Assembly: GCA_038046645.1 (NCBI GenBank)
Contig: JBBSVU010000006.1
Location: 169,196 to 193,977, forward strand
DNA length: 24,782 nt
Reading direction: 5' to 3'
Origin: an archaeon
GTDB taxonomy: Archaea > Iainarchaeota > Iainarchaeia > Iainarchaeales > 0-14-0-20-34-12
Below are positions 15,001 through 21,000 of the stretch, in pieces. Each line of letters starts with the position of its first letter. Position 1 is the stretch's first letter. Made by a program: the position numbers.

Positions 15001-18000
15001 GCTTCAACAAATATTTTGTAAAATATTGGGACCATGCCAATTGCGATAAATGCTATTGCCAAAATGCTTGTGTGCGAAGGGAAAGTGAAATATGCAGTCC
15101 ATAAGGCAACCGAGCTTATTATAAATGAGAATATTGTCATTAGGATTGCGTGCCTCCTTAATGACCTTGTTGACAATAAGTTTTCGACTACCATAGATAT
15201 TAGCTAGGGCAAACCCTATATATTTATTACTTTCTATGGAAATATTTTGTTATATTGGAGCATAACTGAGGAAAATTGGTATTTTTTGGCCTATAGTAAA
15301 GGACATAACTATTTGGCTATAATATAATCCTTTACTATCTAGCAAAAGACAATAAAAGTCTCAAAATTAAAGTCTTTTGCTATAATTTATAGTATTTTTT
15401 ATATCAAAAGGTGAATTAATGGATAAAGACATTGTAATCCCAGGGGAATTCATTGCATATGAGGAGGAATTCCTAGAAGGGAAGAATACAGTAAATGCAG
15501 ACGGCAGGATATATTCCACAACATTGGGAACTTTAGATGTTGATGAGAAAAACCGCTTGGTAAATGTTAAAAAAGCTAGGGATATAGAAAAGTTGAAGGT
15601 TGGCGCAGTCATAACTGGGACAGTTGCCTTTGTAAGGGACAATGTTGTTTCAATAAGGATGGCAGAAGCCCATGATGGAAAAACAAAATTAGTATTGTCA
15701 TCAGGAAGCGCATTCCTTAAGGTTTCAAATGTAAGCACTTCTTACATTGAATCATTAAAGCAGCATTTTAAAATAGGCGATATTGTGCAAGCAGTTGTCA
15801 CCGAAATTAAGCCGTTTGGCATACAACTAAGGACAAACGACCCTAATTTAGGGGTAGTAAAAGCATTTTGTTCAAAATGCAGGTCAGCAATGCACTTAAG
15901 CCACGAAAAATTACAATGCTTAAATTGCGGGAGTGTTGAGCTAAGAAAGTTAAGCAGCGAATATGCAGTAAAGTAATTATTCTTATGCTTTGATTAATAA
16001 AAAAGAGAGGTGTTATTTTGAAAATACAGGTTTTGAATCACGATAAAAATGTGCTCGAATTCAGGATGCTTGGGGAAAGGCACACATTGCCTCAATTGCT
16101 CAAGACAGAACTGCTTTCGAATTCAGATGTGGAATTTGTATCCTATAGGTTGGAACATCCAACAGATGACGATTCATTATTTATTTTAAAAACAAAAAAA
16201 GCAGACCCAAAGAAAGTGCTGCTTGAAACATGTAAGGATGTAACAAAGGAGTTAGACAGCTTTGAGGATGCAGTAAAATCCTTGAAGTAATCCCTTTTTA
16301 CTTATTTATTTGATGTTATGCCTAGCAAGATTCGGGCTATTGCAATAGATGATGGCTATTTTGAAAAAGGTAAATCTAAAACTACGAAATTAATAGGCAT
16401 AATCTGCCGTTCTGATTCTCAGGTAGAAGGCATTTTATCAAAAGATATAGAAATAGATGCATTGGATGCAGCTGATTTGATAGCAAATATGGTGAAAAAA
16501 TCAAAATTTTCTGACCAAGTAAGGTACATCTTCCTTTCAGGCCTGAATTTTGCAGGCTTTAATATTGTTGATTTGCAGGAACTTTATTCTAAATTAAAGA
16601 TTCCAATCATAGTTATCCTAAAGAAGAAGCCAGATTTGCATAAAATAAATTTAGCATTAACCAGATTTGCTGATTTTGATAAAAGAATTGATTTAATTAA
16701 AAAAGCAGGAAAATTATATTCATACAAAAAAATATATTACCAAAAGATAGGCCTGGACGATAAGCAAGCGCAACATATAATAGGTGCTTTTACATATACA
16801 TCTAACATCCCTGAGCCAGTAAGGCTAGCACATATTATTGCTTCAGGCCTTACCTTGGGTGAAAGCACAAGGCCTTAAAATGACGAAACACAATAATCCT
16901 AAAATTCAGAGGAAAAGTATTTCTGATAATAAACAAGAACCCAAAATCAAATCATTGAAGCAGAGGCTTGCATTTTTGCGATGGCTTGACCCATTTACCT
17001 ATGTTGATATTTTTATACTCCCAAAAATAAATCCTAGCGAGAATAAAACAATTACAAATATTATCTATGTTATTTCAGCATTCATCTTTGCGTTTGCATT
17101 TTATTCCTTGTTCGGTTTTTTGCTTTCCACAAATTATCCTGCAACAGTTGTTCTTTCAGGGAGCATGGAGCCAGTTTTTTACCGTGGCGATATTTTAATT
17201 GTTCAGGGTATTTCAGCAGAAACACTTATTGCGCCAGAAATCTCTTTAGATATTGAATCACTTGAAAATGTTTCAACATTTTTTTATGCTAATGGTTACT
17301 GCTCTTTAACCGGAAGCACTTCCCCAGTAAAATGTTTGCAATTATTAAATCCTGTGCTTGCGAATAAAATTTCCCTAGGCAATTTTACCACTAATGAAAT
17401 AAGGTTTTCTGATGGCAGGGTTCTGCCAATTGAAACATCTGGTGACATTGTCATTTACTATTCAAAGCTGCAGAACAAGGAGATTGTCCACAGGGCTGTG
17501 GCAAAAATAAAAGCAAAAGACGGCATTTATGTCCTTACAAAAGGTGACTCAAAGCAAAATCCATTTATAGATCAGGAAGGCGGGATTGTGGAATACGCAA
17601 TAAATGTAAATGACCTTTACGGAAAGGTAATTTTCAAGATTCCGCTTTTGGGCTATGTAAAGCTTTTGCTTCTTGATGATCCTATGCAGTTAATAAAAGG
17701 CTGTTATCTGACAAACACTTGCGTTCTTCCATAGGAAGGTTTAAAATAATAAATCAGCAATTGTTTTGTATGATTTTATCTTTGGAAAATGCTATCTCTT
17801 TCAAAAGATGCATTGATGCTATTTCTGTCCTGATTGATGAAGCGGAATTTTCAATAACTGAAAATGGTCTGGAATTAAGGGCGACAGATCCAAGCCAAAT
17901 AAGCATGATTGATTTCAAGATAAACAAAAGCGCATTCAAGCAGTTTGATGTGAAAGAGGACATAAAATTAGGCATTGACATAGGCTATTTGAGCCAAATC

Positions 18001-21000
18001 TTAGGAAGGGCAAAAAAAGATGATTCCATTTCTTTAGATTTAAATGCAACTAAAAGCTCCTTGAATGTTACATTCTCAGTAGGCAATTCCAAAAGGGCAT
18101 TTTCTGTTCCATTAATAGACATATCACAGGCACAATTGCCTTCATTAAATATTGATTTCGATTCAACAATAACCTTGAAAGCAGATTCAATAAAAGAAGC
18201 GATGAAGGATGCTGCCCTGATATCTTCCTATGTCGTAATCCTGGCACAAGCTGATAAATTTGTTGCAGAAGCAAACAGCAGCAAAGGGCATTTAGTTAAT
18301 GAAATATCTGCAAAAGATGCAGCAATAAAGGAATTCAAGGTAAGGAAGGAATGCAGAAGCATGTTCCCCTTGGAATACCTGCAGAATATGTTAAAAGCTG
18401 CTGAATCAAATGATTTTATTGAGATTAGCATGAAGAATAATGCGCCTATCCGCATATTTTACCCAATAGGCAAGGCAGAAATTACCTATTATCTGGCGCC
18501 AAGGATTGAAACAGAATAAAATGCACCAGCACTAAAAGGGTTTATATTCTCTTATTTGTTATTTGTATAATATTGGTTTGAAGTAAATCTAATATCAAAG
18601 GCCAAAAATAAAGAAACAAAATTTGCCCTTTGATATGAATTTAATAAGGATAATTATGATTGTTCTTGAAAATATAAAACAATTGCAGACAGCAATAAAA
18701 TCCATTTCAAATTTCATTTCGGAAGGAAATTTTAGGTTTAATGACAAAGGAATTGCGTTAAGGGCAATTGATCCAAGCCAAATTGTATTGGTAAATTATC
18801 TAGCCCCAAAAGGCATTTTCAAGAAATTTTCTGTTGAACCCTCATTAATAGGAATTAATATTGAGGATTTTGAAAAGATAATGCGAAGGGCTTTTGCAAA
18901 TGATGTTATGGAATTATCCCTTGAGGATTCATTTTTGAATATCCGATTTTTAGGGGATTTGGACCGAAATTTTAAACTCTCATTGATTGAGTTGAATGAA
19001 GAAGAGGCATCCTTGCCTGATATCGCATTCACTGCAAAGGTAACAATAAAAGCAAGGATTCTTCAGGAAACATTAAAGGATGCATCATTGTTTGGCAGTT
19101 CAATTGTGCTGAACATAAAGGACAATGTTCTCACAATGGAAGCAAGGGGCCAGCAGGGCACTTTAAAAACACTGATAAAAAAAGAATGCGCAGCTGTTGA
19201 TTCAAAGGATGAGATTAATAACAAATATTCATTGAACTTCTTTGAGAATTTGGTTAAGGAAGCAGATCCAGAATCTGAATTGAAGATTGAATTGAAGACC
19301 GAATCCCCAATGAAGATAAGTTATAGAATCGGGGATTCAGAGATACAGTTCTATCTTGCGCACATGATACTCTAAGTCTATGTTTTTCCCAATTATTGGC
19401 AAATTAACTTAAGAAGCTGCAGGCTTTAGCTTGCGGAGCTTCAGTAAGCATAAAAGACCTTTTCTTTAGATTTTATTAGTGCATATGTGGACTTTAGACC
19501 AATTGATTTTTGCATACAAATACCCAATTTCCCAAAAAACCAGGGAAATAATAAAGGACTACAATTTTTCACTGGATAATCTAGATATGGAAATAATTGA
19601 TATAGCAGTTTCAAGAATAAAATTATCTTATTCTGGCAAGGAATACCTTCCTTCCTATATTGAACATTCAAAATCAAAGGATTTAATTTTGAATGAAATT
19701 ATTGCATTCCCTGTGGCAAAAATTCTTGTTTCATGTTTGGACCGGACTTTGATATATAAATTTTCAGAAAATGTTTCTTCCACACTTTTTTATCACCTAA
19801 ATAGGGAGCAGAAAAGGCTTCAAGTAGCATTAGGCCTTGCAAATGAGCTAAGCCTTAAAGTGGATTTAAAAGAAAATGGTGAAAACTATATTGAATTGCC
19901 TTTGTTTGATTTCGTTGAGGTCTCAAATAAGGATCCCCAATTAAATTTGGTAAACCAGCATGTTTCTTTAGGGAAAGTTTTGCTGAATGAAATAAAATTT
20001 TGCAGATTTTTGGCTGCAAAAGCATATTTCCTTACCTTTAATTCATTGCAGGCAGATCCAGCATCAATCCCAAAATACCTGAAGGATATTGCCAAAGGGA
20101 TAAAGTTTGAATCTGCATTTTCACCCAAATTTGAAAGCTTTGGTGCCTTTGGAAAAATAGACCCTAATGCTTTCCCGGCTTGCATGAAATCTATTTATAC
20201 CTCTTTATTGGCAGGGGAAAACATTCCCCATAATGCGCGCTTTAACATCACAACATTCTTGAATTCAATCGGGATGCCAAAGGAACAGATAATAAATGCC
20301 TTCAGGAAAACGCCAAATTTTGATGAGCGCATTACCCGGTACCAGGTAGAAAGGATTACTTCAGGCAATATAAAATATTCTGCCTCAAGCTGTGCCACAA
20401 TGAGGAGCAATGGCTTGTGCCCTGATAAAAATTGCATATCAAAGCACCCAATTTCTTTTTATAAAAGAATGCTTGCTGTTCCAAGAAAGGCATCAAAGGA
20501 AGAAAAATGATATTTATGGGATTAAATGAAAATGCAAACGAGCAGGGATTCCTGAGGAAAAAATTCCAGGAATTTTATGCTGGCAATGAAATTAATTATC
20601 CTACTAAAGTTGCGAACAGGGAATTTGGGATAGGCGAATTCGGGAAGAAGATTGTGAAAAGGCATATGGCCTTTTCAAATCCAAATTTCTTCAATGCATT
20701 CCTTAAGGAAGATGTTCCCTTTTATGTTTCTGCCTCAGCCAGCCTATACAAAATGCCTGATGCGAGGCCGATGGACAAAAAGGAAATCATCGGTTCTGAA
20801 TTGATTTATGAGTTTGATGCTGATGACATAAAAACTGACTGCAGGAACCAGCACGATTCTTGGAGGTGCACGCAGTGCAATGCTTCTGGTTCAGGAACAG
20901 TGGAAAAATGCACATCTTGCGGCTCAAATTCCCTGCAGCTTGACCAATGGTTTTGCCCTGAATGCCTAAATGAAACAAAAAAGCAGGTATTTAATTTAGT

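Follow-up and report, generated by a model that had tools for sequence, protein, structure and literature searches.

Two conserved, divergent PCNA paralogues in Iainarchaeota: a candidate heteromeric sliding clamp outside Crenarchaeota

How a homomeric ring becomes a heteromeric one is an open question, for which sliding clamps offer few cases, the crenarchaeal PCNA and the 9-1-1 clamp. In eukaryotes, the latter (Rad9-Rad1-Hus1) brings PCNA-fold paralogues together in a specialised ring. Crenarchaeota assemble C1-C1-C2 and C1-C2-C2 rings, as described for Aeropyrum and S. tokodaii (PMC2880001, excerpt). PCNA1 and PCNA2 of T. kodakarensis form separate homotrimers (PMC3504372), and PCNA2 is described as virus-derived, carried in an integrated element and dispensable (PMC3914693, excerpt). 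A single PCNA gene is given for Micrarchaeota in 8/8 rows and for Altiarchaeota in 5/6 rows of Supplementary Table 1 of PMC12680538 (excerpt), and the order pcn-priL-priS-gins15-aIF2a is a known archaeal cluster (PMC2643942, excerpt). A supplementary table of PMC12680538 (2025) already lists a PCNA copy number of 2, which the excerpted text leaves without comment. Our literature search returned no paper on the PCNA of Iainarchaeota by that name, and the main text of PMC8407392 does not mention PCNA.

Here, we analysed a window of 24,782 nt from an Iainarchaeales genome (contig JBBSVU010000006.1, positions 169,196 to 193,977), in which the first-pass annotation had noted two divergent tandem PCNA genes that are 32% identical. 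This was borne out: on the + strand, as for all features below, pcnA (17770..18519) encodes PCNA-A, 249 aa ending in YYLAPRIETE, and pcnB (18656..19375) encodes PCNA-B, 239 aa from its ATG, ending in FYLAHMIL; both intact ORFs match Pfam PCNA_N and PCNA_C as well as NCBIfam PRK01115. The pair shares 78/245 residues (32%) in a pairwise alignment, and the median across 140 genome pairs is 33% (range 21-41%). The source genome has exactly two PCNA_N matches. AF2 models of PCNA-A and PCNA-B reached pLDDT values of 94.8 and 95.6, and the top Foldseek match of PCNA-B was T. kodakarensis PCNA1 (3LX1, TM 0.95), so that the two-domain PCNA fold is found in both proteins by Pfam and AF2, and by Foldseek for B; a Pfam search gave no match of PCNA-B to the Rad1 model. 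In summary, pcnA and pcnB are both intact, conserved, PCNA-folded and kept together.

Upstream of the pair lies a block (15419..17734) identified by domain matches and comparison of loci: an exosome subunit gene (ECR1_N, presumably csl4-like), rpoL, an endonuclease dU family gene and signal peptidase I. This block is conserved and also precedes the single PCNA gene of genome G151. Downstream, domain matches place priL (19479..20510; Pfam and NCBIfam-type) and priS (20507..21754), the large and small primase subunits, followed by gins15 of the GINS51 type (21764..22318, Pfam) and by the aIF2-alpha and PAC2 genes (22804..24560), the translation half of the PPsG-LSIN supercluster (PMC2643942, excerpt). 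Rfam gave zero matches across the window. A stands upstream of B in 139/139 pairs, and priL follows within 2.5 kb downstream of B in 114/127 loci. The A-B spacer of the window is 136 bp long (18520..18655) and holds a TATA-like TTTATATT at 18541-18548, a possible separate promoter for pcnB; such motifs occur 5′ of A in 55/139 and 5′ of B in 47/139 cases, as raw counts from which the chance level is not subtracted. Among relatives, the spacer is a hot spot for insertions (median 671 bp; more than 200 bp in 93/139 pairs), and since unrelated or antisense genes often separate A from B, the two do not form a single fixed operon.

We then examined the distribution of the pair. Among 151 Iainarchaeales genomes, at least two PCNA matches were found in 142, one in 5 and none in 4, which upholds the earlier statement that nearly every genome of the order has both. 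The pair is well established in that order, but limiting it to Iainarchaeales understated its range, as 15/19 genomes of other orders also have both, the second copy falling in the B clade. Across the whole class (215 genomes), at least two matches were found in 200, one in 10 and none in 5, these being matches rather than strict copy numbers; among genomes at least 90% complete, 56/58 have at least two. Three other-order genomes have the A-type gene alone, namely G151 (94% complete) and G203 and G204 (79-80%), and hence an A-type protein is probably functional without B. The median dN/dS was 0.070 for A and 0.086 for B (24 close pairs), which indicates that both are under purifying selection of similar constraint. 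The near-universal retention of the pair occurs within genomes of 0.3-1.5 Mb, and a second clamp under strong selection at around 1 Mb is unexpected. PCNA is handled as mostly single-copy (PMC12680538, excerpt), and the second copy therefore affects marker-gene work.

The two paralogues differ at the edge where clients dock. In PCNA-A, the residues of the canonical edge, L242-A243-P244-R245 (codons at 18493..18504), are 99-100% conserved among 135 A and 103 outgroup sequences, with P244 and R245 at 100%. At the PIP-box site, the C-terminal A-P-[RK] edge is thus present in A (100%) and absent from B (H 91%, M 99%), where the tail codons (19355..19372) read LAHMIL. This ending, which the first-pass annotation had reported in place of LAPR, was found in 140/192 distinct B proteins taken from the loci, with LAHMLL in a further 29/192 and the tail P retained in just 5/192, and in 108/120 database homologues among the matches listed. 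By alignment offset, H236 and M237 of B correspond to Pro240 and Arg241 of A. fulgidus, which touch client proteins (PMC3504372), so that the change from LAPR to LAHM falls at a partner-contacting edge. Altogether, the docking edge of PCNA-B is altered at N25, R27, V44, K190, S192, H236, M237 and the terminal L239, each 88-99% conserved.

Ancestral features are divided between the copies. A retains P244, R245 and E247 and has K76 changed to Q (88%) and K142 to Q (82%), and B retains K/R at 76 and K at 142 and loses the P-R tail and the basic residue 82. The net charge of the four inner helices is +2.0 in the outgroup, -0.7 in A and +1.1 in B, with a mean K+R of 8.6, 6.4 and 7.3, respectively; the basic DNA-facing lumen is weaker in A. 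At the core of the head-to-tail subunit interface (A numbering), R80, R109, E143 and D147 are 95-98% conserved in B on both faces, so B would be expected still to join a ring; in A, R80, R109 and D147 reach 98-100%, and D143 only 67%. For D143 and D147, we worked with presumed ring-contact partners in PCNA. By their entry titles, PDB 1IZ4/1IZ5 carry mutations of these two residues.

Phylogeny was taken from a mixture-model tree of 61 rows, which superseded a first FastTree tree where the placement of B was unresolved and the A clade split. Each paralogue has its own clade, as claimed before, with supports of 100/100 (B) and 96/87 (A) and stem lengths of 0.79 and 0.13; PCNA-A evolves more slowly and has the ancestral tail, LAPRIE. 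A and B cluster with the single-copy G151 protein beside Micrarchaeota (96/91) in this tree, which includes no named crenarchaeal sequence. It favours a duplication that took place within Iainarchaeota, the B stem being long. Grouping with DPANN-2 relatives argues against orthology to crenarchaeal C1, C2 or C3; an outside origin of B survives the AU test (p = 0.066). The earlier claim of an evolution apart from the crenarchaeal clamp is hence favoured for the pair as placed here, but less securely for B. A pattern-limited scan of viral_contigs confirmed none of 92 pattern matches as a relative, and a viral origin was set aside. A locus search with the G151 PCNA returned only G151 itself.

We next looked at ring assembly. 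An ESMFold2 model of A2B scored 0.49 against 0.02 for the best control, with a partner pLDDT of 86 and 91% contact agreement between runs. The mark applied was reached by 116/157 solved complexes and 2/215 mismatches, and the band up to 0.60 holds 18 solved complexes together with both mismatches; the pass thus lends weak support and may reflect mere likeness to solved PCNA rings. Tree-aware co-substitution tests, which were underpowered and used a presumed contact list rather than one from coordinates, gave no covariation for A_N-B_C contacts (p = 0.22 and 0.26), B_N-A_C contacts (p = 0.69 and 0.55) or B-B contacts, though the B intra-chain control worked (p = 0.004-0.024). A-A contacts gave a weak signal on the paired tree (p = 0.008 and 0.005), which faded to p = 0.14-0.16 on an A-only tree and to p = 0.29-0.42 without two pairs noticed beforehand; a single-copy outgroup control gave no signal, and we take the A-A signal as a hint only. 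Mutual-information covariation, at an effective depth of 53-63 pairs, gave a signal in three of four interface classes but none in its homotrimer control (p = 0.30); its top inter-protein pairs were non-contacts, and it was dropped as unpowered. The heteromeric clamp proposed in the first-pass annotation has the weak A2B model pass on its side, and the lack of A-B covariation in these tests against it.

Loader and clients were searched as well. Genome G000 encodes one RFC-S and one RFC-L, and none of 46 genomes searched gave a second match of RFC-L strength, so a dedicated alternative loader of the 9-1-1 type was rejected. Client PIP boxes are of the ordinary type. RFC-L and RNase HII carry short Q-x-x-L-F tails, which were discarded as a B-specific client motif since they also occur in the single-PCNA genomes G151 and G203. 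Canonical PIP patterns were found in 6/152 PriL, 7/115 PriS and 0/106 Gins15 sequences. The four-cysteine insert of PriS was considered as a partner of B and rejected: 27/106 PriS lack it, of which 26 come from two-PCNA loci, and in the single-PCNA genomes G203 and G204 two cysteine pairs can be seen.

The best reading of these data, to which we give a probability of about 0.45, is an asymmetric A2B heterotrimer that arose from pcn duplication and is loaded by a single RFC. A tandem duplication near the base of Iainarchaeota would have yielded two subunits sharing out the ancestral jobs, which would now sit in one trimer, most likely A2B. A, with its ordinary docking edge, would bind the PIP-box clients PolD, PolB, FEN1, RFC-L and RNase HII; B would keep more basic DNA-channel residues, and its changed edge would reject ordinary PIP boxes or take another partner. 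Such a ring would have ordinary client sites at two positions and a special one at the third, and A might also form A3 rings, as does the least diverged crenarchaeal subunit. We counted in favour of A2B the retention of the pair in small genomes, the similar dN/dS of the copies, the single loader, the split of ancestral features, the weak model pass and the C1-C1-C2/C1-C2-C2 precedent; the A-A hint and the silent B-B contacts fit a ring with an A-A contact. Against it, we counted the lack of A-B covariation, the fragility of the A-A signal with its silent outgroup control, the genes that split A from B and the A-only genomes. A stricter version, rather improbable in our judgement, is an obligate A2B ring that evolved independently, in which the B edge would be a dedicated site for a PIP-less partner, such as the primase or GINS encoded behind B, or for one fixed loader position; if true, heteromeric clamps would have evolved by a third route as well, here in a genome-reduced lineage and with a docking code of a new kind.

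The main rival, unlikely but to be taken seriously, is a pair of separate homotrimers loaded by the same RFC, with A3 as the ordinary replicative clamp and B3 as a specialised one with its own partners. In Iainarchaeales A, Y73 and Q76 on one face are matched by I151, S170 and K172 on the other, B having E73, K76, F151 and G170 as in the single PCNA of G151, a difference that could insulate the two rings. In addition, 42/46 A proteins without K/R82 also lack D/E143, B143 meanwhile being unchanged. The absence of A-B covariation, the frequent separation of A and B into different transcription units and the T. kodakarensis precedent (PMC3504372) agree with this. However, the 82-143 co-loss comes down to five shared branches (sign test p = 0.5), E143 is 95% conserved in B although its basic residue 82 is gone, B-B contacts did not covary despite the working B control, neither a second loader nor a B-specific client motif was found, and the inner helices of an A3 ring would be net negative. 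Quite improbable is free mixing through four working interfaces, where A3, A2B, AB2 and B3 would coexist and the expression ratio would set the number of ordinary docking sites; core interface residues common to both copies, the several crenarchaeal compositions (PMC2880001, excerpt; PMC4894655) and the plausible separate promoters suit it, but at 33% identity, interface differences that are fixed and specific to each copy suggest selective pairing. Strict alternation or a B-rich ring, that is AB2 or an (AB)2 tetramer like PCNA2-PCNA3 of S. tokodaii (PMC4894655, PMC3504372), could draw on possible cross-copy pairs between A K172 (94%) and B E73 (96%) and between A K82 and B E143, on presumed contacts; it is very unlikely, as the sole covariation hint concerns the A-A contact, absent from such forms, and A-only genomes exist. 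Least probable of all is that B is a monomeric or adaptor-like PCNA-fold cofactor outside the ring, or was gained by horizontal transfer rather than duplication: the long B stem, the AU result and the weak client binding of one of two Pyrobaculum PCNAs (PMC4894655) point that way, but B retains both interface faces, a basic lumen and the full fold, occupies the ordinary pcn place before priL directly behind A, and has no confirmed relative in the viral scan.

The two-gene case of Iainarchaeota comes with natural variation across about 200 genomes, with close relatives that have a single copy (G151, Micrarchaeota) and with small proteins that should express readily. It lets one test directly whether clamp paralogues share one ring or form two, and which changes at the surface determine the choice of clients. 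The nearest tree relatives, Micrarchaeota and Altiarchaeota, have the same gene order with a single homotrimeric PCNA in the PPsG-LSIN cluster (PMC2643942, excerpt). The eukaryotic 9-1-1 clamp differs in having its own loader subunit, with Rad17 named as the loader paralogue in the supplementary note of PMC12680538 (excerpt), whereas a single RFC-L was found here and B has no Rad1 match. Lokiarchaeales and Thorarchaeia have additional PCNA paralogues (same note), which resemble the present case in being multiple PCNA genes outside Crenarchaeota, but belong to a different lineage, and the likeness is by description, not by tree. T. kodakarensis is likewise a non-crenarchaeal archaeon with two PCNA genes, its PCNA1 being the top structural match of B; unlike its PCNA2, both Iainarchaeota genes belong to the core replication cluster, 200/215 genomes retain them, and a mobile second clamp of that patchy, integrated type was rejected on these grounds and on the viral scan. 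Compared with the crenarchaeal clamps, the Iainarchaeota pair, a candidate heteromer, has two genes rather than three, a DPANN host with PolD, one copy without the P-R tail and ordinary client PIP boxes; it is like those of Sulfolobus (PCNA1-2-3), Aeropyrum, S. tokodaii and the two-gene Thermoproteaceae in consisting of old, lineage-wide chromosomal paralogues with altered docking pockets (PMC2880001, excerpt; PMC4894655; PMC3504372).

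PCNA-A (window positions 17770–18519; 249 aa, ending in LAPRIE) and PCNA-B (18656–19375; 239 aa, ending in LAHMIL) are encoded in tandem, each gene matches PCNA_N, PCNA_C and PRK01115, and the two proteins are 32% identical. The first-pass annotation had claimed that nearly every Iainarchaeales genome keeps two PCNAs, and this was borne out, with at least two PCNA_N matches in 142 of the 151 genomes of the order sample. A search of the whole class Iainarchaeia with the PCNA-B alignment, whose figures count matches and not strict copy numbers, found at least two matches in 200 of 215 genomes, one in 10 and none in 5, and at least two in 56 of the 58 genomes that are at least 90% complete. 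In genomes from other orders, both copies were present in 15/19, the second copy ending in LAHMIL, LAHMLL, LAQMIL, LAPILL or LAPLIL. A published Supplementary Table 1 (PMC12680538, Nat Ecol Evol 2025) lists two PCNAs in 6/6 Iainarchaeota rows from three orders, and one in 8/8 Micrarchaeota and 5/6 Altiarchaeota rows; Lokiarchaeales, Thorarchaeia, Aeropyrum and Saccharolobus are mentioned in the accompanying note on PCNA and Iainarchaeota are not, and the figures of that paper may show the extra copy. In the literature searched, which lay outside most subscription journals, we found no paper discussing the Iainarchaeota pair. One genome has a third PCNA that stands alone and is very divergent (L145:1324-2277, contig G042:C21; 27% identical to PCNA-A), with a LAPR motif and an acidic tail; three matches also occur in G094 and G149. 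Furthermore, a B-type gene of 47–52% identity is found in records titled Chloroflexota, Falkowbacteria, Micrarchaeota, Thaumarchaeota or Methanosarcinales (L028, L031, L032, L041, L054, L332), which are probably mislabelled Iainarchaeota bins.

The two exceptions among the genomes at least 90% complete are G023, where the PCNA-B gene lies 686 bases from the contig start, and G151 (94% complete), which has one PCNA, in the upstream context of PCNA-A. Since the gene before priL in G151 encodes an adenosylhomocysteinase and the contig is continuous, PCNA-B is probably truly absent from this genome. Two other genomes with one A-type gene each, G203 and G204 (79–80% complete), share a cysteine insert in PriS with two-PCNA genomes, an insert that G151 lacks, suggesting that PCNA-B may have been lost from them or left unassembled. 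Across the PriS sequences compared (window 20507–21754; L401:6339-7520 in G151), the four-cysteine insert is present in 79/106, and those without it are G151 and 26 two-PCNA loci.

The pair lies in the known archaeal replication-translation cluster (described in PMC2643942), in the order rpoL, an endonuclease dU gene, signal peptidase I, PCNA-A, PCNA-B, priL, priS, gins15, aIF2-alpha and PAC2. From all loci, 140 distinct full-length A/B pairs were kept after the removal of duplicates, over-long frames and rows with undetermined residues (four loci were removed for X residues). PCNA-A is upstream of PCNA-B on the same strand in all 139 same-contig pairs, and priL follows PCNA-B at 114 of the 127 loci with enough sequence. 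As the pcn-priL linkage is ancestral in archaea, according to the same paper, this adjacency is no evidence for a contact between PCNA-B and primase. The A-B spacer exceeds 200 bp in 93/139 pairs (median 671, maximum 7872) and often contains unrelated or antisense genes, so the two genes remain neighbours without forming one fixed operon. The gap is an insertion hot spot for rpiB, pantothenate kinase, EamA, Na/Ca exchanger, ABC transporter and other genes (for example, L066:7828-8277, L014:9159-9953, L019:7208-8080, L032:4142-5128 and L114:3490-4425). At 16 loci, other orders included, the gene immediately 5′ of PCNA-A is one of 125 aa that matches no Pfam family (e.g., L020:6576-6950). Elsewhere in the window, the lonB protease gene (5097–11481) extends over three ORFs and carries two intein-like inserts, the first of which is broken into separate frames and encloses an unrelated 272-aa ORF (7535–8353) with no Pfam match; an ORF at 718–1428 has a weak match, under the Pfam cut-off, to an AbiEi antitoxin-type regulator.

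Judged from conservation and predicted structure, PCNA-A and PCNA-B are both functional genes. Over the 140 pairs, pairwise identity averages 54.5% for PCNA-A and 52.7% for PCNA-B, the median dN/dS over 24 close pairs is 0.070 and 0.086, respectively, and PCNA-B is predicted to adopt a complete PCNA fold (pLDDT 95.6; TM 0.95 to T. kodakarensis PCNA1).

The origin of the two copies was examined in a tree of 61 selected proteins, inferred with IQ-TREE under a mixture model, in which the bootstrap was not fully settled. It comprised 12 Iainarchaeales pairs, four other-order pairs, one extra PCNA-B, the G151 protein, eight named Micrarchaeota, two named Altiarchaeota and 17 others, with no named crenarchaeal protein. 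The PCNA-B clade (support 100/100) has a stem of 0.79 and the PCNA-A clade (96/87) one of 0.13; together with G151 they form a group (96/91) to which Micrarchaeota come next. Constraining PCNA-B to group with 11 distant PCNAs cost 13.75 log-likelihood units and was not rejected (p-AU 0.066). The tree, helped by the tandem position of the genes, favours, short of proof, the view that the gene duplicated inside the phylum and that PCNA-B then changed in a burst. The G151 protein (L401, contig G151:C18; L065) branches beside A+B, as their sister at only 95/61, and has features of both, making G151 a candidate pre-duplication lineage and its single PCNA a good control protein.

A column profile of 135 PCNA-A, 117 PCNA-B and 103 outgroup proteins located the differences (A numbering unless stated). 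P244 and R245, invariant in PCNA-A and in the outgroup (100%), are replaced in PCNA-B by H (91%) and M (99%), and the chain ends two residues further on, at a conserved L. These positions align with A. fulgidus Pro240/Arg241, which, according to PMC3504372, guide the client beta-zipper and participate in the RNase HII switch. PCNA-B retains the D-P-S-Q loop and two hydrophobic linker residues, which argues that its docking pocket has been rebuilt and not decayed. It has further specific invariant residues (N25, R27, V44, K190 and S192 in B numbering; 88–99%), which, by analogy with human PCNA, presumably surround this pocket. In the DNA channel, positions 76 and 142 are Q in PCNA-A and K in PCNA-B and the outgroup, and the four-helix net charge is −0.7, +1.1 and +2.0, respectively. 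At the interface, R80, R109 and D147 are retained in all three groups; Y73, S170 and K172 are new in PCNA-A; PCNA-B no longer has a basic residue at position 82 and, like the G151 protein, retains E73, F151 and G170. The differences in docking edge, channel and interface indicate that the ancestral surface has been split, each copy retaining a different part.

On the client side, the window's genome encodes one RFC-S (its gene includes a run of N), one RFC-L, one FEN1, PolD, PolB and ligase. Ordinary PIP boxes stand at the ends of FEN1, PolB and DP2, and RFC-L closes with a short Q-x-x-L-F form that is present in single-PCNA genomes too. No second match of RFC-L strength was found in the 46 genomes searched, nor did we find a candidate client motif specific to PCNA-B. 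In L415 and L418 (G070 and G027), no PIP-like motif is recognisable at the end of RFC-L. The RNase HII family gives a second, weaker match in 12 of the 17 Iainarchaeales genomes searched (e.g., in the window's genome, G000:C5:6104-6529) and in 0/19 genomes of other orders.

Whether the copies share a ring was approached by modelling and covariation. An A2B complex modelled with paired alignments (105 rows) scored 0.49 against 0.02 for the best control, a weak support, with a partner pLDDT of 86 and agreement in 91% of contacts; a pass of this kind is wrong more often than right unless the complex is likely beforehand, and it may stem from likeness to solved PCNA rings. Mutual-information tests lacked power. 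A tree-aware test on the 140 pairs, with a list of expected contacts and working intra-chain controls, gave p = 0.008 for A-A contacts, and no signal for B-B (0.44), A_N-B_C (0.22) or B_N-A_C (0.69). The A-A signal weakened on an A-only tree (p = 0.14–0.16) and on removal of two pairs noticed beforehand (0.29–0.42), and the homotrimeric outgroup gave no signal, so it only hints that PCNA-A touches itself. Such a contact would fit A2B and an all-A ring (A3) alike. In summary, the PCNA duplication is real and phylum-wide, probably independent, and one of the copies has a rebuilt docking edge. A heteromer is the leading, as yet unproven, reading and A2B its most likely form, which we infer from the universal retention of both copies, the single loader, the split ancestral features and the precedent of the crenarchaeal PCNA.
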